A stretch of 63,844 bases of DNA from a virus. Positions within the stretch are counted from its first letter, which is position 1, and each line of letters begins with the position of its first letter. A program made the position numbers and the translations under genes. The stretch is from the UHGV virus genome UHGV-0109393. One strand, written 5' to 3'. The notes beneath the pieces are model-generated. The model was not told the DNA's origin, made no database searches, and saw only the letters and a list, made by a program, of their open reading frames with translations. Of this stretch, positions 14,524 through 51,035 are shown one piece after another.

Positions 14524-14839
14524 CCTGTGTGTCTACAAAACATCCCAATGATCGGAAAATGTTCTCTCGATGATTTGTATTAGAAAATTAATTTGCTGTT
14601 TCTAAATCGGAATGTATGATCTGCATCATCGACTGAAGTCATCCATTGCTGAAATTTTTAGTTGATCTTCCATGTTTTCAGGCTTATATTCATGCCGTCG
14701 TAGCAAATTCTGCGACCAGGTTTGACAGCCTGAATGTTAGTGCGGACAACCGCAGATTTCCGATATTGCGGTATTTTTGTGTCCGTAAACCGCGTTACGC
14801 CCGAATTATGGTGGGGCGTGATGGGGAGGCTTAGGCCTG

Positions 14840-14910
14840 CTGGTTTCACTAACGCCAGTCTGTCAACCCTGTCACGTCCTGCCACCTGTTTGACAGCGGG
14901 TAGCAGGTTG
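14840..14910 (+). ncRNA. Candidate c4-type antisense RNA with target sites (module 1); boundaries approximate
   Basis: GTTTGACAGC occurs at 14720 and 14889; its near-complement TCTGTCAACC sits between them at 14858; a second pair is CCTGCCACC / GGTAGCAGG; all lie just upstream of the icd-like RBS. Confidence 0.3.
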
Positions 14911-25552: not shown

Positions 25553-26773
25553 ATGGGAACTGCAATGAGTCAACAAACTGATACTTCTAATCTGGAAATC
25601 ATCTCAGCCGCGATTGAAACGCTGCGGACACAGATCGCCCTTATTCAAAAGCGGAATCCGGGGGATGACCTGTCCAGACGGTTACATGAGAGCGTCATTG
25701 CCACGACTGATAACCTGGTCGCGGAGATCAACCAGCTACTTGAGGAAGGGACGGTTGATTACAACAAGCTGGTGGATCAGTTTGAGGAATATCAACAAGC
25801 CGTTAATGATGGCTTGATCCGTTTTTCACAAGTCACAGGCGTATCAGCGACAGTTGAAAGTCTTGGCGATGCTGTTAAGCAATTTGCCGCGAGTATGCGT
25901 AGTGAGATCGGCAATCTGGAAGCGCGTCTTGAACAGGCAAACACACTGCGCAAATCCGCAGAAGCCGATTTGAGTCGTTACAAAAAAGACTATCCAGCCA
26001 GCCTGTCAAAACGACTGGATGTTGCGGAGAAGGATAACCGTGCGCTGAAAAGAGAGCGTCGGGAACTAAAAGAGCGTTTAACAGAGCTGAATAAGCAGTG
26101 CATTAAGTATCAAGGCGAAGGTGTCACACTGCGTAAAAAGTTAGCAGCAGCGCAGAACATTATTGAAACGCTGAAACGAGAGTGTTCACAGCTTGGTCAT
26201 GATCTGAACCGCGCTTGTGGTATGGGACAAAGGCCAGAGACATTCCCGCTCATGTATGACGGGGTGGATGCTATTGCCTATATCCATGAGTACCCGCATG
26301 GTCTGGTTGCGGAGACTGGTCAGCGTGGTGAAGCTCTGTTGACGGCTAATTACCATCAACAAATTAGAACCAACCGCCTGCTGACTATGGATGTGATCCC
26401 ATCAGTATGGGGAACGCCGCTTTACTATCGCCTGCCCGGCTTCGAAACGGACTGGAATACCGATATAGACGAATGCCTGGCAGATAAAATTATGGCGTAC
26501 CTGGAGACTGATTTCCCGCGCCTGCATCGCCGGATTATGGACTCTAAGGATGCGCCGATCGATGAATTGAAAATGCGCCCAGAGACGTTGGAAGCTATCA
26601 AACAGACTGCGTTTGATACCGTATTCAGCGTGGCCTGTATCCCAAGTAGTTTTCATGAAAGCATCCCCTTTATGCAGGGCGACCGTCGTCAAGAAATTAT
26701 TGATGCCTGCCGGGTGTGGGCTAACGAATGGGACAAGAAGAATGGGGGCGTAGAAGATCTTTATGGGAAATAA
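25553..26773 (+). CDS. Hypothetical coiled-coil protein
   Basis: 406 aa from the first ATG; single gene bracketed by operator-like sites at 25522 and 26773. Confidence 0.5.
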   Translation: MGTAMSQQTDTSNLEIISAAIETLRTQIALIQKRNPGDDLSRRLHESVIATTDNLVAEINQLLEEGTVDYNKLVDQFEEYQQAVNDGLIRFSQVTGVSATVESLGDAVKQFAASMRSEIGNLEARLEQANTLRKSAEADLSRYKKDYPASLSKRLDVAEKDNRALKRERRELKERLTELNKQCIKYQGEGVTLRKKLAAAQNIIETLKRECSQLGHDLNRACGMGQRPETFPLMYDGVDAIAYIHEYPHGLVAETGQRGEALLTANYHQQIRTNRLLTMDVIPSVWGTPLYYRLPGFETDWNTDIDECLADKIMAYLETDFPRLHRRIMDSKDAPIDELKMRPETLEAIKQTAFDTVFSVACIPSSFHESIPFMQGDRRQEIIDACRVWANEWDKKNGGVEDLYGK

Positions 26774-26792
26774 TATGTTAGAAATCTAATTT
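26773..26792. promoter_or_regulatory. Operator-like site
   Basis: ATATGTTAGAAATCTAATTT. Confidence 0.5.
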
Positions 26793-26928
26793 CATCAAAC
26801 GAACATATTGATTGTGAGAGTAACTTAACTTAGAATTTTCCTTGCTGGTGGAGCGTTGCCACATTTCGCTTGCTGGGCTTGATAGTCACTTATTGGTTGT
26901 TGTTCGCCCACCAGCAAATAACAAATTA

Positions 26929-26945
26929 AAGTGTTAGAAAATTAC
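26929..26945. promoter_or_regulatory. Operator-like site
   Basis: AAGTGTTAGAAAATTAC. Confidence 0.45.
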
Positions 26946-27528
26946 ATGCATACAGGGACTCGCTTTGGCACCGAGCAAGCCAAAGTTCAGCAGGTTTAGT
27001 GCGTAAAGTGGTTTCAGAGAGAGCACTTTACGGAGTAAACAACAAGACATGTTGAGCCACGGAAGGTCTTTTTAAGATGTTCATTGATGATGGTCCGGCA
27101 GAGAGTAACGGGACTCGCCGCATCGAATCATCATCAATGCACATCCTCAACATTAAGGAGGCATAGGGATTTTTTTGTGGCGATTACCTTTTGCCCTAAG
27201 TCTCCTTAATGTTGCGGTAATGCACCTATGCGGATGCGGCCTTGCATTGTGTCTTGAAAGAATGGGGTAAGGCCGGGGATATCCCCAGGGGGAGGCACCC
27301 CCGCTGCAACGAACAGCCACAGACGGCAGTCGAGTGATGGAAACGTGCAAAGACTTTAAACCTCGTTACGGCTGGCGTGGCAAACGCGACAACCGAGACA
27401 GAGCGGTGACGGGCGGAGAGAGTGCCGCATCAAGAAAGAAGCCGACTTGTGATCCCTTTCTGCGGGCATTTGAAAGTGAATCCAGCTCAGGCAGTCGGCT
27501 TCTTTCTTGTGTGAGATGTAGCGTATTT

Positions 27529-27552
27529 GCCCATCTTCGGGTGGGCTTTTTT
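27529..27552 (+). terminator. Rho-independent terminator, possible 3' end of a small RNA
   Basis: GCCCAtcttcgGGTGGGC followed by TTTTTT; preceded by a 16-bp stem (CAAGAAAGAAGCCGAC / GTCGGCTTCTTTCTTG). Confidence 0.6.
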
Positions 27553-28012
27553 AGGGTTTTCGTCATGGTTAGCGACTTTGCGGCGGTTTAGAACCCGACC
27601 ATTAAAGTAAATGCAAACGATGATCTGATGATGGTAGCGGCCTAAGAAGCCTGACGCCACGGGGTATGAGTCGTCCCCCGTCAAAAAATCGACCGCAGAG
27701 TGTCCCCGTCTGTGTATTAGGGAACGGGGAGGCATAACAGGCAAGGGCGCTGGTGTGATTAACCAGATGAATGAGAAGGGTCAGGTCTTTCTGGTCAGCG
27801 CCCTTACCTGTTACGTCCCTCCCGCGTAACAGCCATTGATTAATGGCTTTCTGGGATAACATCCTACTACGGGTATATCCCGTCATGCTGAAGGCGCTAA
27901 TCACGCTGGAAGCCAGGGTTGTGCATCCCCTGTTACCGAATTGCAGCCAGGGCGCGGTGCGCCGAAAAGCATACGGAGGTGGAAGCCCTCGCCGGAGACG
28001 TACCCGGCAAGT

Positions 28013-28089
28013 GATGGTGTAGCTCAGTAGGATAGAGCAGCAGCCTTCTAAGCTGTCGGTCGGTGGTTCGAATCCACCCACCATCGCCA
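28013..28089 (+). tRNA. tRNA-Arg (anticodon TCT)
   Basis: Hand-folded cloverleaf: acceptor GATGGTG/CACCATC, D-arm GCTC..GAGC, anticodon loop CTTCTAA, T-loop TTCGAAT, encoded CCA; resembles E. coli argU. Confidence 0.85.
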
Positions 28090-28091
28090 AT

Positions 28092-28167
28092 GCCGGTTTA
28101 GCTCAGTTGGTAGAGCGCCTGCCTTGTAAGCAGGATGTCAGCGGTTCGAGTCCGTTAACCGGCACCA
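28092..28167 (+). tRNA. tRNA-Thr (anticodon TGT)
   Basis: Acceptor GCCGGTT/AACCGGC, anticodon loop CTTGTAA, T-loop TTCGAGT, encoded CCA. Confidence 0.85.
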
Positions 28168-28168
28168 A

Positions 28169-28255
28169 CACAACAGGTAAGGGTATTTTGCGACGTCGGA
28201 GATCGCCGTGCTTGGCAGAGGGTTCGAATCCCTACGAAGTACCCTTACCGTTGTG
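28169..28255 (+). other. tRNA-like hairpin element B (pseudo-tRNA or structured RNA)
   Basis: 16-bp stem (CACAACAGGTAAGGGTA / TACCCTTACCGTTGTG, one mismatch) enclosing a T-arm-like AGGGTTCGAATCCCT; cannot be folded into a canonical cloverleaf. Confidence 0.4.
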
Positions 28256-28632
28256 ATGAAGTGCAGCTCTTTGAAGCAACCAGAAGATAAGCATCTGGCT
28301 TCACAACATAAACCGCAGGAACGACCAATAAACGGTAGTCCGTATGGAGAATACCCCGTTGAGGAAGAGGCCTGGCCGGAACCGTAACCGGCACTACAAC
28401 GTTGAGAACACTGACGTAACGGGGTCATATCCCAATCTACGAATAAATGTTGCGTTGCAGCGTGACAACCAGTGTTCTCAACGTTGTGGTGGATTCGCAG
28501 ACTGATGCGATAGCTTTCTTGGATGTTAGGGAAATGCGGCCGCAAACCTTCCCTTTCGCGAGCGGTGATCGTCCGTAGTCCTAATTGGCTGCACCGTATG
28601 CCGGAGATTCAGTACCGGCCACCACAACGGCC

Positions 28633-28719
28633 GGAGAGTAGGGAGCATGGTGCTCAAGCGGTCTTGAAAACCGTCCCATTGCGCAAGCGATGATGGTTCG
28701 ATTCCATTACTCTCCGCCA
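28633..28719 (+). tRNA. tRNA-Ser (anticodon TGA), long variable arm
   Basis: 87 nt; acceptor GGAGAGT/ACTCTCC; anticodon arm GCGGTCTTGAAAACCGT nearly identical to E. coli tRNA-Ser(UGA) as recalled; T-loop TTCGATT, CCA. D-arm fold uncertain by hand. Confidence 0.6.
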
Positions 28720-28993
28720 GCGCAACGTTAAGAGTATTTGGCTAATTAAGCGAATGCCGGAAGCAGAACCGGATCACCAAATGCGTACAGGCGTCATCGC
28801 CGCCCAGCCAGCCAAGTGCTCTTACCATTGCGGTGAATGCGGCTAAGCGCACGCGGAACAGTTAAAACAATTTTCCTCAATAGTGAAGTCAAACATCCCG
28901 GCGTTAATTGTTAACTGGTTAACGTCACCGGGAGGCACCCGGCACCGCAATCTAACAGCAATGGCGTTTTGTCTTAAAAGGTAGCTGCAAGTG

Positions 28994-29122
28994 ATGGATT
29001 TTTGGGCCTTTGCCGATAAGAACCCTGGTTGGACATTTTTATTTCTGCTGGTGGTTGCATATGGGATCGAGCAAGCGGCAAAAGCCTTACGCGGTTCTGG
29101 CAAAAAGCGTAAGCGGAATTAA
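28994..29122 (+). CDS. Candidate small membrane peptide (42 aa), hydrophobic core with basic tail
   Basis: MDFWAFADKNPGWTFLFLLVVAYGIEQAAKALRGSGKKRKRN; not in the ORF track (under 60 aa); lies between the second AGGCA hairpin and tRNA-Ile2. Confidence 0.25.
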   Translation: MDFWAFADKNPGWTFLFLLVVAYGIEQAAKALRGSGKKRKRN

Positions 29123-29131
29123 CAGTAATCT

Positions 29132-29206
29132 GGCCCTTTAGCTCAGTGGTTAGAGCTGGCGACTCATAATCGCACGGTCACCGGTTCAAGTCCGGTAGGG
29201 GCCACC
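29132..29206 (+). tRNA. tRNA-Ile2 (anticodon CAT, ileX-like lysidine type)
   Basis: Near-identical architecture to E. coli ileX as recalled (GGCCC-TTAGCTCAGTGGTTAGAGC...CTCATAA...GGTTCAAGTCC...GGGGCCACCA). Confidence 0.8.
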
Positions 29207-29660
29207 ATATTTGGTTGTAACACGGCGTATGGCACATGCGTCGTTAGCGGTCTGGTGACGTTAAAGGGGTTACCTTTTCCCCTAGCTCAGGCAACAAACC
29301 AGGTAGCCGGAATGTGCAAGCCCCGTTCATATCGTCGGACCGAGGACTCACCATCCTGGCGATTCGGTGTGACAGCCGGAAGAGTACGGCGCACAACAGG
29401 AAAAGGCGTTTAATTAGCGTGAGCGCCGTTTCCGTTGTGGTAATTGCGGCTATGCGCTCGTGACGAAGCCATTTTCATTCACTACGTTCTGATAAGTGAC
29501 GTCGCCAGGAGTGGCTAACCTGGCAGGTGGAGGCACCACCGCCACAACTCCTTTCAATTCATCATATAGCCGCTCAGGCTGTAACCCTTAATTAATACGA
29601 AGTTTCGACATCTCTATCGGTTTAACCGAGGGATGGTCGCGCGTGTAAAAAGGAGACGTT

Positions 29661-30236
29661 ATGTTAACGGCGAACGATAACGCGTATGCAGAAGCAGACC
29701 TCATATTGAGTGACTTCATCGGTCAGCGGGAACGCTGGACACAAAAGCGAGAGGAACTTTATGCCTCGTTAGTTCGCAAAGGTGTCAACATTGAAACCGC
29801 TCAAAGCGGCGATATGACGGTAGTCAGTGTTGGATTACATGGTGTGAGCGTGTCCGCAGCCAATCATGAGCCATACGTAGCGTTATCCGAGTCGATGGCA
29901 AGGCTAATTAAGTTTCTGAAGCAAACAGAAGCCAATAATGTTTTCATCGCCAAAAAGAACATCAATTTTTCTGCCGCCATGTTCTGGATGATGAAGGGGC
30001 TGGATGCCCGCCGGGCATCATGGCCTAAAGGGAGCTATTTATCGATGTTCCGTGGCAGCATTGGCAGCAAAGAAAAGCTCTTCGAATTCTTGCCGGAAGA
30101 GGCATTCGATATTGTGGAAGGGTGCGATGTGATGGTTATGCCTCGCCTGGTAATGATGAATGGGGATTTACAGGCGCAGACAGACTGGTTCGCAACTGGC
30201 GTGGATATTATCGCAACTGACTGGGAGGCATTCTGA
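29661..30236 (+). CDS. Hypothetical protein with a C-terminal W-x-K-x-G-x(3)-RR-x(2)-W motif (DUF2829-like)
   Basis: 191 aa; FSAAMFWMMKGLDARRASW...TDWEAF; paralogous motif in 37872..38534. Confidence 0.5.
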   Translation: MLTANDNAYAEADLILSDFIGQRERWTQKREELYASLVRKGVNIETAQSGDMTVVSVGLHGVSVSAANHEPYVALSESMARLIKFLKQTEANNVFIAKKNINFSAAMFWMMKGLDARRASWPKGSYLSMFRGSIGSKEKLFEFLPEEAFDIVEGCDVMVMPRLVMMNGDLQAQTDWFATGVDIIATDWEAF

Positions 30237-44184: not shown

Positions 44185-45180
44185 TCAGTTATTGAACGTG
44201 ATCACTCCGCGCTCGATGGCGAAGTCGAAAAGCTGGTTGGCGGCTACGTAAAGGCGTATGCCATGTGCTTTTTCCCATGCCCGGACATCGTTTTCTGCGC
44301 TTCTGGCGCATTCATCGCAAAGAGGAACGGCCCAGCGATCGTGTTCGTTTAACGAGCGGGCGCGGTACATGAACGGGTGGTTAACTTTGCCACCGCATCC
44401 GATGCACGGACGAGAAACCACAAACCGGAGATAAGCCGGGCTTTTACCGAGGACCGCTTTTGGTCGGCGCATATACAGCAGGCCGGAATCCTCATCTACA
44501 GACAGGTTGACGATCTGCTCTGCGGTTATGTCCACCAGCTCACGGGTGCTGTGCTCCCAGGTGATATCCGATTCTTTCAGTGTGCCGGTAGGGATTTCCT
44601 GTTTTGGCTGACAAAATGCAATGCGACCGGCTTCATCTGGCAGCTCGTCTTTCAGATTCCGGCGAATGGCCCAAAAAGTGAGTTCAACCATGCTCAGATC
44701 GCGTTCTGGCGGTAGTTTTAACTCGCTCGCAGCCCAGTTCATAACCCAGTTGGCACGATTCAGGGATAACTGGTCATCCAGCTTGCCGTACCCCTTCATC
44801 ATGTATTCCGCATCATGCTTCCAGCACAGGCGAACGGCAGAGCCGTTATAGAAATGAGTGGTTAGCTGGTGGCTGCAATCGCGCTTATCGTGCGCCTGGC
44901 AATCGTGGATATTGGAACTTACCCAATGAACAAGCGAATCTTCACCGCCTAATGCGTTAAATACGCGCTCGCTTTGAAAAAATGCTTTCAGAGACTGGTT
45001 GGCAACCAGCGAATAGTTCAGATCCACTACGCCATCTGGCGTGTTTTCAGCCTGTTCGCGCGGAAGTGGAGAGATAATGAAACGGCGACCTGCGCCAATG
45101 TAGTTGCTGGTGGGCTTGTCTACCGGAAAGACAGCCACACCAGCTCCGTTTACGAAATGAGGTGTGATTATTGCACTCAT
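44185..45180 (-). CDS. Hypothetical protein with Cys/His cluster (possible zinc-binding nuclease-like)
   Basis: 331 aa; CIGCGG...H...CDEC near the C-terminus. Confidence 0.4.
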   Translation of the reverse strand: MSAIITPHFVNGAGVAVFPVDKPTSNYIGAGRRFIISPLPREQAENTPDGVVDLNYSLVANQSLKAFFQSERVFNALGGEDSLVHWVSSNIHDCQAHDKRDCSHQLTTHFYNGSAVRLCWKHDAEYMMKGYGKLDDQLSLNRANWVMNWAASELKLPPERDLSMVELTFWAIRRNLKDELPDEAGRIAFCQPKQEIPTGTLKESDITWEHSTRELVDITAEQIVNLSVDEDSGLLYMRRPKAVLGKSPAYLRFVVSRPCIGCGGKVNHPFMYRARSLNEHDRWAVPLCDECARSAENDVRAWEKAHGIRLYVAANQLFDFAIERGVITFNN

Positions 45181-50750: not shown

Positions 50751-50855
50751 AATACTGACTGTTGCGCCCTGGCATTATCGTGGGGTATATTTCTACGGCA
50801 CCTTAGAAAAACGGGTGCCGGGATTGGAACCCCGGATAATGCAAAAGGCGACACA

Positions 50856-50877
50856 GACGCCGAAAGCGTCTTTTTTT
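50856..50877 (+). terminator. Rho-independent terminator
   Basis: GACGCcgaaaGCGTC followed by TTTTTTT. Confidence 0.7.
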
Positions 50878-50899
50878 GTGTCATGCCATCGCACAGCCA

Positions 50900-51035
50900 T
50901 ACGTAGCGTTTAGCTCAGAGATCAATGGTAGTGCTGGCTGGGCTGCCGAAAGGCAGGCCGGTTCCCTTTTGCGCCGGTAGTTCCAACCCAGTCAGTGCTA
51001 CCGCCATTGAGATTGGAACCTCACGCGGTAGCTCC
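50900..51035 (+). ncRNA. Candidate c4-type antisense RNA with target sites (module 2); boundaries approximate
   Basis: GATTGGAACC at 50821 and 51011 with its complement GTTCCAACC at 50980; second pair GCTACCG (50997) / CGGTAGC (51026); tRNA-like TAGCTCAGAG stretch; immediately upstream of the icd-like RBS. Confidence 0.3.

Follow-up and report, generated by a model that had tools for sequence, protein, structure and literature searches.

A tRNA-bearing leader with two related hairpins

The DNA analysed here, called the window throughout, is the whole 63,844-nucleotide (nt) stretch of UHGV virus genome UHGV-0109393, a P1/D6-like phage-plasmid whose identity over the region of interest is 96.7% to D6 and about 92% to P7 and P1. 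This region is a 2.9-kb leader, known in P1 as the ban-operon leader; it holds four tRNAs and, in an examination of the open reading frames (ORFs) of the window, no convincing ORF (26773-29661). Two hairpins, A and B, lie on its sense strand, which is the strand of the window tRNAs and of the flanking genes, and with at least three paralogues in the window they represent a conserved hairpin module of phage RNA. In P1, the order is the C1-controlled Pban promoter, the “dicF-like” region, tRNA-Asn, tRNA-Thr, tciABC, tRNA-Ile and ban, and in both P1 and P7 the + strand, in this orientation, carries the tRNAs and, after them, tciA and ban, all downstream of Pban. Upstream of 27526, the window and D6 are not homologous to P1, and D6 has a pmgS-like gene there. 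No C1 operator was found for the leader in the window.

The 5’ arm of A (CATAACAGGCAAGGGCGCTG) pairs with CAGCGCCCTTACCTGTTACG with a single C.A mismatch, and the helix can be extended to about 27 bp with mismatches (27726-27822; repeat I1 of the inverted-repeat search). In B, CACAAC-A-GGTAAGGGTATTTTG pairs with CGAAGTACCCTTACC-GTTGTG to give a basal helix of 6 + 15 bp around a bulged A (A28175); the counterpart of this base in A is paired (AACAGG/CCUGUU), and the C.A mismatch falls one position further in. The predicted folds have energies of -48.3 kcal/mol for A and -40.8 kcal/mol for B (z-score, z = -5.3 for each), and none of 200 shuffles of either hairpin was as stable as the native sequence. 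Exact copies of the 12-mer AACAGGTAAGGG lie at 27801-27812 (-) and 28172-28183 (+), a copy with one mismatch lies at 27736-27747 (+), and the 12-mer is confined to these arms; chance alone would give a 12-mer about 0.008 exact copies in 2 x 63.8 kb. A 1-nt deletion sets the fourth arm (28243-28252) apart from the 12-mer. The interiors of the two hairpins, which we call cargos, are unrelated to each other.

The initial annotation of this DNA had described two look-alike hairpins with common terminal stems, the second directly after tRNA-Thr. The sequence is as described, with near-identical basal arms whose likeness exceeds chance, and B starts one nucleotide past the encoded CCA of that tRNA. 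The limits proposed for B (28169-28255) were right, those for A were 3 nt short on either side, and the number of elements was too low, as at least five copies (A, B, C, E and F) occur in the window.

The cargo of A includes the conserved GGUGUGAUUAACCAGAUGAA, and its 5’ half is invariant in 23 P1-like variants. The cargo of B contains a T-arm-like GGGTTCGAATCCC (GGGUUCGAAUCCC as RNA; 28220-28232), which is absent from the minimum-energy fold of B. Both hairpins are conserved in D6, P1 and P7; in P7, the stem of B shows compensating changes and holds an unrelated, shorter cargo that is free of the T-arm.

Further copies and intervening domains

Repeat finding, folding and a motif scan yielded additional hairpins of the same design, namely C, E, F and possibly G (Table 1). 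The family was described with a covariance model, R2, built from 26 hairpins of viral contigs that were not collected as P1-type and not selected by kinship to P1; the training set includes no window sequence and no B-type cargo. Another model, R1, made of the arms and an artificial T8 linker, found only F, because a cargo longer than about 30 nt exceeds its window, and it was replaced by R2. Over the whole 63.8 kb, R2 matches A, B, C, E and F, and all its other matches have an E-value of 0.5 or more. That A and B are paralogous structured RNA elements inside the tRNA cluster, one of the possibilities raised initially, is supported by the match of R2 to both. Membership of G is not established because of its low R1 score.

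Table 1. Position, pairing and scores of the structured elements in the leader of the window. R1 and R2 scores are in bits, with E-values in brackets.
Feature	Position	Strand	Structure and context	Scores and folding
Hairpin A	27733-27815	+	arms 27733-27752 / 27796-27815; cargo 27753-27795	R2 32.9 (2.9e-6)
Hairpin B	28169-28255	+	arms 28169-28190 / 28235-28255; cargo 28191-28234	R2 55.1 (7.5e-12), 33.3 on -
Hairpin C	28392-28491	+	22-bp stem CACUACAACGUUGAGAACACUG / CAGUGUUCUCAACGUUGUGGUG (repeat I3, 95% complementary)	R2 30.1 (1.5e-5); -52 kcal/mol, z = -7.4
Hairpin E	28721-28832	+	arms CGCAAC-G-UUAAGAGUAUUUGGCU / AGCCAAGUGCUCUUACCAUUGCG; helix about 24 bp	R2 18.1 (0.015), 7.9 on -; -44.9 kcal/mol, z = -3.95
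Hairpin F	29392-29439	+	CACAAC-A-GGAAAAGGCG...CGCCGUUUCC-GUUGUG; short-cargo member, almost cargo-free	R1 45.3 (2.4e-11); R2 42.5, 17.7 on -; z = -5.0
Hairpin G, possible distant member	27149-27213	+	CAACAUUAAGGAGGCAUAGGG / CCCUAAGUCUCCUUAAUGUUG (arm scan)	R1 10.1 (2.3); z = -5.7
Small domain after B	28250-28308	+	closed by GUUGUGAUGAAG / CUUCACAAC (sequence and minimum-energy fold)	
Domain X	28482-28629	+	11-bp closing helix CGUUGUGGUGG / CCACCACAACG (repeat I15, 100% complementary); ends 4 nt before tRNA-Ser	
STnc100-like domain	28829-28949	+	outer helix AUUGCGGUG (28827-28835) / CACCGCAAU (28944-28952)	Rfam RF02076 43.9 bits (gathering score 47)
Transfer-messenger RNA (tmRNA)-like tag template	27613-27645	+	in closed domain about 27570-27702; about 90 nt upstream of A	
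tRNA-Arg(UCU)	28013-28089	+		ARAGORN; Rfam tRNA 72.1 bits
tRNA-Thr(UGU)	28092-28167	+	encoded CCA 28165-28167	ARAGORN; Rfam tRNA 74.9 bits
tRNA-Ser(UGA)	28633-28719	+	encoded CCA 28717-28719, 1 nt before hairpin E	ARAGORN
tRNA, anticodon CAU	29132-29207	+	counterpart annotated tRNA-Ile2 in P1	ARAGORN

The cargo of E is homologous to the lambda sequence immediately 3’ of lambda’s own hairpin. Between the hairpins lie closed domains, the first of which, just after B, is closed in such a way that the GUUGUG of the B 3’ arm has a second, downstream partner. Second covarying partners of the 3’-arm GUUGUG are also found for C (GUUGUGGUGG/CCACCACAAC) and E (AUUGCGGUG/CACCGCAAU) of the window, for the E-type hairpin of P1 (GUUGCGGUG/CACCGCAAC) and in lambda (GUUGUGCUG/CAGCACAAC). 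The outer helix of the STnc100-like domain overlaps the base of the E 3’ arm. In lambdoid contigs, the hairpin is succeeded by a GGUGAAU...CCGGAGAUCAGCACCGGCCACCACAAC domain, with which domain X shares homology (consensus of the downstream sequence in 58 contigs among the matches listed). The leader thus reads as an alternation of hairpins and closed domains with common CACAAC/GUUGUG junctions.

A mini-hairpin with a GAGGCA loop is present in three copies (27286-27310, 29528-29548 and in the STnc100-like region 28829-28949). Its stem covaries (GGGGG/CCCCC, CCGGG/CCCGG, GGUGG/CCACC), and its tail looks like the 3’ end of a tRNA with CAAC after it. One version of 25 nt, AACCGGGAGGCACCCGGCACCACAACC, shows 100% conservation across SfV, SfII, SfIV, ST64B, mEp460 and others.

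A family of leader hairpins in unrelated phages

R2 finds three to five copies apiece in the related genomes D6, P1, P7, L004 and L101, copies in Cronobacter phage ES2, L166, L100 and L051, and matches in about 60 other contigs besides lambda. In 100 further viral loci it gave 97 matches at E-values below 1e-4, with two or three copies in several of them. Pattern scans of viral contigs also revealed P1-type arms on new cargos in unrelated phage contigs, between baseplate genes in L051 and, in L100, after a Cro/C1-type helix-turn-helix gene and on its strand. The exact P1-type arms are narrow in their distribution, since a scan of 185,579 species genomes for CAACAGGTAAGRG-N40-70-CYCTTACC returned one P1-like Escherichia contig and otherwise chance matches only; the broader family therefore required an anchor composed of the 3’ arm and the following GGTGAAT, with which at least 120 loci were found in viral contigs.

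Among the matches listed, a CAYAAC...GUUGUG hairpin is closed in 62 of 116 unique upstream regions, and a stricter check of the outer helix left 53 unique hairpins. The bulged A is present in 48 of these 53, the outer helix has a median length of 19 bp (range 16-22), and the cargos, from 24 to 136 nt long, form 40 unrelated clusters; five of the cargos are T-loop-like. The consensus basal helix of about 19-21 bp is CACAAC-A-GGUAAGAGCAUUG ... CAGUGCUCUUUCC-GUUGUG, in which CACAAC, the bulged A and GGUAAGRGYAUUG make up the 5’ arm and the complementary 3’ arm terminates in GUUGUG. A and B agree with the general pattern of a helix of this length that starts with CA(C/U)AAC, ends with GUUG(U/C)G and usually has the bulged A. 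The apical cargo is exchangeable, and we propose that the basal helix is the functional part of the hairpin.

The hairpin is situated on the same strand just downstream of a Q antiterminator gene at six loci (L146, L166, L143, L123, L193 and ES2) and just downstream of a cI-type repressor gene at three (L165, L160 and SfV); the flanking ORFs in L140, L118 and L214 have no Pfam match. Among the cryptic prophages of E. coli K-12 MG1655, Qin alone gave a family member, a weak one between cspB and essQ (1641166-1641223; locus L241 6167-6224, -; 20 bits, E-value 0.0017), and none was found in DLP12. The family is absent from Rfam 15 and, as far as checked, the family as such, the variability of its cargos and its presence in P1 are undescribed; the paper on the D6-like plasmid does not mention the hairpins.

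In L166 (264-330, -), a lambdoid late leader has the order Q gene, tR’, hairpin, tag-like module, hairpin, domain X, terminator and int-alpA RNA (RF02996, 43.7 bits, above the gathering score). This order implies that several orphan RNA motifs share such leaders.

Selection on the sense-strand structure

In an alignment of 39 arm pairs, 88.8% of the cells pair, compared with 36-56% in slid controls; changes on both sides are seen in 10 of the 21 pairs, and none of 500 shuffles reaches the observed values. The U18.G35 wobble is present in 21 of the 39 sequences. In the wider family, when two mismatch-prone positions are excluded, 44 G.U cells stand against 4 A.C cells, and for A, the 23 P1-like variants have pairs in 702 of the 710 cells read on the + strand (616 Watson-Crick and 86 G.U, with 5 A.C). 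R2 scores on the + strand exceed those on the - strand by 10-25 bits for B, E and F. The bulged A, the compensatory changes and the many G.U pairs, which would be mismatches on the opposite strand, argue for folding as sense-strand RNA; we take the folded strand to be RNA since it is the sense strand that is transcribed. On this evidence, the hairpins are constrained as a folded sense-strand nucleic acid.

The copy in phage lambda

R2 matches lambda at 44787-44862 with 63.3 bits (E-value 1.2e-14). The hairpin begins 6 nt past the U-tract of tR’, the terminator of 6S RNA, in the late leader before S, and it is one of the two long helices of this short leader. Daniels et al. (1988, Virology 167:568) reportedly described the processing of the lambda Q-dependent late transcript by RNase III. 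That their RNase III sites fall in the 44787-44862 hairpin is a strong lead, not a result. In that case, A and B would be processing hairpins of phage leaders, a kind of element whose function in lambda has apparently been known since 1988. The article of Daniels et al. is cited in PMC7547250.

The annotated orf-64 of lambda (44621-44815) overlaps both the tR’ terminator and the initial 29 nt of the hairpin, and this ORF call looks doubtful.

Comparison with known RNA classes

ARAGORN calls no tRNA at A or B, the Rfam tRNA model (RF00005) has no match over either even at E-values up to 10, and an Rfam scan of both hairpins gave nothing beyond hairpin-shaped noise. B had been described initially as T-arm-like and unable to form a full cloverleaf, and this holds; tRNA software does not see a normal tRNA there. 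The accompanying idea of tRNA-derived processing elements survives in part. Processing is the role we judge likeliest, and the derivation of the stems from tRNAs fails because the same hairpin family occurs in lambda and in many contigs with no tRNA nearby (tRNAs are near the hairpin in 13 of 55 family loci among the matches listed). The shared stems thus do not seem to be tRNA-derived, and the likeness to a T-arm is limited to the exchangeable apical cargo of B.

Several other identities were considered for A and B and rejected. The only match of the bacterial Y RNA YrlA (RF02553) has 24.4 bits (gathering score 69) and lies on the T-arms of tRNA-Arg and tRNA-Thr, not on B; the YrlA modules follow the order Ro-binding stem, T-arm, acceptor hairpin and D-arm, and in B the final module ahead of the 3’ strand is the T-arm. 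STnc100 (RF02076) has no match over either hairpin, and no microRNA-like Rfam match is meaningful for them. A split tmRNA with B as its tRNA-like domain is not supported, given the U3.G70 instead of G3.U70 pair in the acceptor-like helix, the absence of a free CCA and the two real tRNAs between B and the tag template. The intrinsic terminators listed by a scan are at 27526-27546, 28495 and 29405, none at A or B, which are followed by ACGUCCCUCC and AUGAAGUGC, respectively. A miniature transposable or REP-type repeat does not fit the unrelated interiors of A and B or the diversity of cargos in the family.

Family members occupy places comparable to nutL, nutR and the late leader, which raises the idea of a processive-antitermination RNA; this idea is unsupported. 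R2 has no match in the region of the HK022 put antiterminator RNA, and the putR region lacks CACAAC/GGUGAAU motifs. The 3’ arms UGCUCUUACC and the GCUCUUUGAA after B are boxA-like, but neither TGCTCTTTAACAA, when as many as 3 mismatches are allowed (24 copies against 21.9 expected), nor GCTCTTW (20 copies against 17.6 expected) is enriched, and the copy in the arm would moreover be double-stranded; boxA/Nus antitermination is rejected. A promoter within the hairpin was also discarded, as its -10-like TATTTT lacks a -35 partner and no promoter is listed there by the scan.

A proposed role in leader processing and its alternatives

The explanation that we favour, with a probability of about one half, is that the leader is divided into tRNA and small RNA (sRNA) units at the hairpins, which would be processing sites of the RNase III type. 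The basal helix would be the substrate of the host double-strand-specific endonuclease RNase III, and cuts at the basal helices would split the polycistronic precursor into units. As B and E begin one nucleotide past the CCA of tRNA-Thr and tRNA-Ser, respectively, a cut in their 5’ arm would leave these tRNAs a short trailer for exonuclease trimming; without this cut, a stable hairpin would obstruct the tRNA 3’ end and leave RNase E hardly any single-stranded RNA. Both the choice of RNase III as the enzyme and cleavage as a step in tRNA maturation are what we infer from this arrangement. RNase III accommodates about 22 bp of double-stranded RNA, and its E. coli sites occur in intergenic regions adjoining tRNAs (PMC6212723). 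Helices of the two turns expected from that work (about 20-22 bp) are found in A (about 27 bp, mismatches included), B (21 bp and the bulge), C (22 bp) and E (about 24 bp). RNase III is favoured because of these conserved two-turn helices, the variable apex, the copies that abut tRNA 3’ ends and the published tRNA-adjacent sites; free variation of the apex (40 clusters in the 53 hairpins, among the matches listed) is expected if the basal helix alone matters.

A number of observations weigh against this proposal. Some helices are short for a classical RNase III substrate (about 12 bp in SfV and about 15-19 bp with bulges in F), and the arms are conserved in sequence as well, which RNase III does not obviously need and which may come from a sequence-specific partner or from recent shared ancestry. 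Within lineages, the cargo is conserved about as well as the arms, with the B-type T-arm cargo recurring in L214 and one 55-nt cargo in six contigs (among the matches listed), so that it is not mere filler. Given the second partner of GUUGUG, the hairpin may at times be open at its base, one L051 copy has its higher score on the strand that does not carry the flanking genes, and the lambda sites of Daniels et al. could instead lie in the long tR’ hairpin.

A possible but doubtful alternative is that the stem is only a handle and that the apical hairpins are released, by RNase III or other enzymes, as trans-acting small RNAs, for example antisense RNAs or mimics of the tRNA T-arm that serve as decoys for tRNA-binding enzymes or for defence nucleases directed at tRNAs. 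The cargo types are indeed discrete and conserved within lineages (one of the 40 clusters has 6 members, among the matches listed), a T-loop-like GGGUUCGAnUCCC is shared by at least five otherwise unrelated cargos (L123, L143, L193, L205 and L214) and by the B hairpins of P1 type and of L004, the 5’ half of the A cargo does not vary, and the adjoining modules are sRNA-like (STnc100/PasD family). Against it, P7 exchanges the T-arm cargo of B for an unrelated one in an otherwise unchanged locus, cargo length varies widely down to the almost empty F, and the T-arm of B is missing from the minimum-energy fold. A related and unlikely conception is a viral counterpart of clustered microRNA precursors, in which a conserved stem recognised by RNase III would display and release a hypervariable small RNA, while the T-arm-like cargos such as that of B, acquired repeatedly, would be functional tRNA mimics that serve as decoys or as the missing tRNA-like partner of the tag template upstream of A. 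If this were true, cargo turnover would reflect an arms race. It is rather unlikely that the hairpins are passive insulators that involve no dedicated nuclease and that keep the 2.9-kb untranslated RNA structured, bar the loading of Rho and stall 3’ exonucleases; the leader is ORF-free and nearly all folded in the minimum-energy prediction, and hairpins come after terminators and tRNAs, but generic structure needs no conserved arm sequence, bulged A, U.U mismatch or U.G wobble across unrelated phages.

A DNA-level role has to be weighed as well, because the initial annotation had suggested remnants of a site-specific recombination target. Inverted repeats acting as recombination sites or cassette boundaries, attC-like or for another recombinase, could mobilise tRNA and sRNA cassettes. 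Homology with P1, P7, L004, L012, L056 and L101 is interrupted at the arms or the neighbouring GGUGAAUGCGG motif, and natural variants are deletions or fusions between copies (L012; L056/L028/L008), with an extra copy in L101; the deletion hybrids join C to E, and the CACUACAAC of C to the CACCACAAC before tRNA-Ser. The tRNA content of relatives also varies (Asn or Arg, with gain or loss of Tyr and Ser), and the AAC...GTT base, extrahelical base and variable terminal structure are attC-like in form. The arms, ACACAAC/GTTGTGA in B and GCATAAC/GTTACGT in A, nevertheless all depart from the R’’/R’ consensus RYYYAAC/GTTRRRY, and the helix is continuous except for one bulge or mismatch, leaving no unpaired central spacer. 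No recombinase, and in particular no integron-type integrase, is linked to the hairpins, the family loci examined share no common recombinase among unrelated host phages (P1-like, lambdoid and Mu/P2-like), and the predominance of G.U over A.C suits the transcribed strand. In the comparisons with relatives, nothing at the arms requires a site-specific system, and the mosaic joints fit ordinary homologous recombination at short repeats. Repeated arms would then act, as a side effect seen in the comparisons, as joints at which cargo and tRNA cassettes are reshuffled, and a dedicated DNA element is quite improbable. That A and B are functionless remnants of tRNAs that decayed in the cluster is very improbable. 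The cargo of B does have a T-arm-like hairpin beside a 7-bp acceptor-like helix (UAUUUUG/CGAAGUA), but the shared arms have no tRNA counterpart and are under structural selection, A has no tRNA feature at all, the family is common away from tRNAs, and both ARAGORN and the Rfam tRNA model are negative; decay is largely refuted for the stems and is left only as an origin of some cargos.

Other features of the leader and the window

The tag template upstream of A (GCAAACGATGATCTGATGATGGTAGCGGCC followed by TAA) encodes ANDDLMMVAA* and is preceded by AAAGUAAAU; the E. coli ssrA tag is ANDENYALAA*. Rfam gives weak tmRNA_permuted and tmRNA matches (22.8 bits). Related phage loci encode ANDDLMMAAA, ANDDVVLMAA, ANDDLMLMAA, ANDDLMLAAA, ANDEQFLAVA, ANDDQFLAVA and ANDEQFLMVA, each of 10 codons with a hydrophobic end in AA or VA. 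ARAGORN finds no tmRNA in the tag-bearing loci, no tRNA-like domain was found for the template, and the same 15-mer in other contigs is located in genuine permuted tmRNAs. The template may be a phage tmRNA mimic or relic.

The first tRNA of the leader is Arg(UCU) in the window and L004 and Asn(GUU) in P1 (locus L002 2994-3069) and D6. The acceptor stems of the window and P1 tRNAs are identical (GATGGTG/CACCATC) and the D, anticodon and T arms differ, so that the body of this tRNA looks as if it had been swapped inside a conserved frame. tRNA-Ser(UGA) has 46.6 bits on the Rfam tRNA-Sec model (gathering score 47), and in the D6 record tRNAscan-SE would not assign an amino acid to its counterpart. 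The deposited record of D6, the closest relative of the window, has three tRNAs on the strand opposite to the flanking genes; ARAGORN places the four of the window on the + strand. The P1 gene plp (locus L002 3118-3495, -) overlaps the 3’ end of tRNA-Thr and the entire hairpin B, and this ORF call is doubtful.

Mini-hairpins of the form GCCGGA-N-CCGG occur three times (27991-28007, 28375-28391 and 28756-28772), spaced by 384 and 381 nt, each before a tRNA or a hairpin module, which hints at growth of the leader by duplication of a unit of about 380 nt. A perfect 17-bp hairpin (27431-27447 / 27493-27509) is followed by a terminator-like GCCCATCTTCGGGTGGGC and T6 (within 27431-27552). The P1 sequence aligned with this terminator overlaps the annotated “dicF-like” region at its end; the hairpin at 27431-27509, of D6-type sequence, has no P1 counterpart, and the Rfam DicF model has no match in this part of the window. 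Elsewhere in the window there are two matches to C4 antisense RNA on the + strand, at 14684-14889 (68.2 bits) and 50798-51008 (76.7 bits). One of the two C4 matches has an a1/b1 target element and the other an isrK match upstream, which suggests two immI-like immunity modules within one window.

Significance and comparison with known systems

The non-coding P1 ban-operon leader of 2-3 kb was both sequenced and annotated in 2004, the P1 genome paper reportedly being that of Lobocka (2004), and functions are assigned in it only to three tRNAs and the “dicF-like” region. The family described here joins the P1-like phage-plasmids, the lambda late leader and many prophages through a common grammar of hairpin, closed domain and tRNA or sRNA, and it offers a testable model for the release of phage-borne tRNAs from their precursor. 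If the link between RNase III and the lambda hairpin is true, the 1988 observation acquires a sequence family and a covariance model. The exchangeable cargos and the nearby tag template are leads for new phage RNA biology.

A close known counterpart is the hairpin of the lambda late leader, which has the same basal helix as the window members (CACAAC-A-GGUAAGAGCAUUG ... CAGUGCUCUUUCC-GUUGUG), likewise on the sense strand of a long leader and after a terminator, with the next domain closed by GUUGUGNNN/NNNCACAAC. Lambda has a single copy and no tRNAs, whereas the window has at least five copies among four tRNAs in the leader of a presumably early, repressor-controlled operon, and the cargos differ. 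The STnc100/PasD prophage sRNA family is also found in prophage leaders, and in E, SfV and many contigs the hairpin 3’ arm leads straight into its GGUGAAU... start; the hairpin is outside the Rfam model, which begins within or after it, and A and B have no STnc100 match.

The stems recognised by RNase III in rRNA operons and in the T7 early region are, like our hairpins, long double-stranded helices that punctuate a polycistronic precursor of stable RNA. RNase III sites within the T7 genome share sequence. The rRNA-operon stems are built from sequences that flank the product, whereas the window hairpins are local and lie beside tRNAs, and they have no sequence similarity to the T7 or rRNA-operon sites. 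Integron attC sites are imperfect hairpins with an AAC...GTT base, extrahelical bases and a variable terminal part as well; their consensus boxes, unpaired central spacer and linked integrase are absent here, and the substitution pattern points to RNA. Finally, the tRNA-like domains of tRNA, tmRNA and YrlA resemble the cargo of B in its T-arm-like GGGUUCGAAUCCC beside an acceptor-like 7-bp helix. B has no anticodon arm and receives no tRNA or tmRNA call from ARAGORN, P7 lacks this cargo, and the “acceptor” of B, instead of ending in a free NCCA, runs on into a 15-bp helix.

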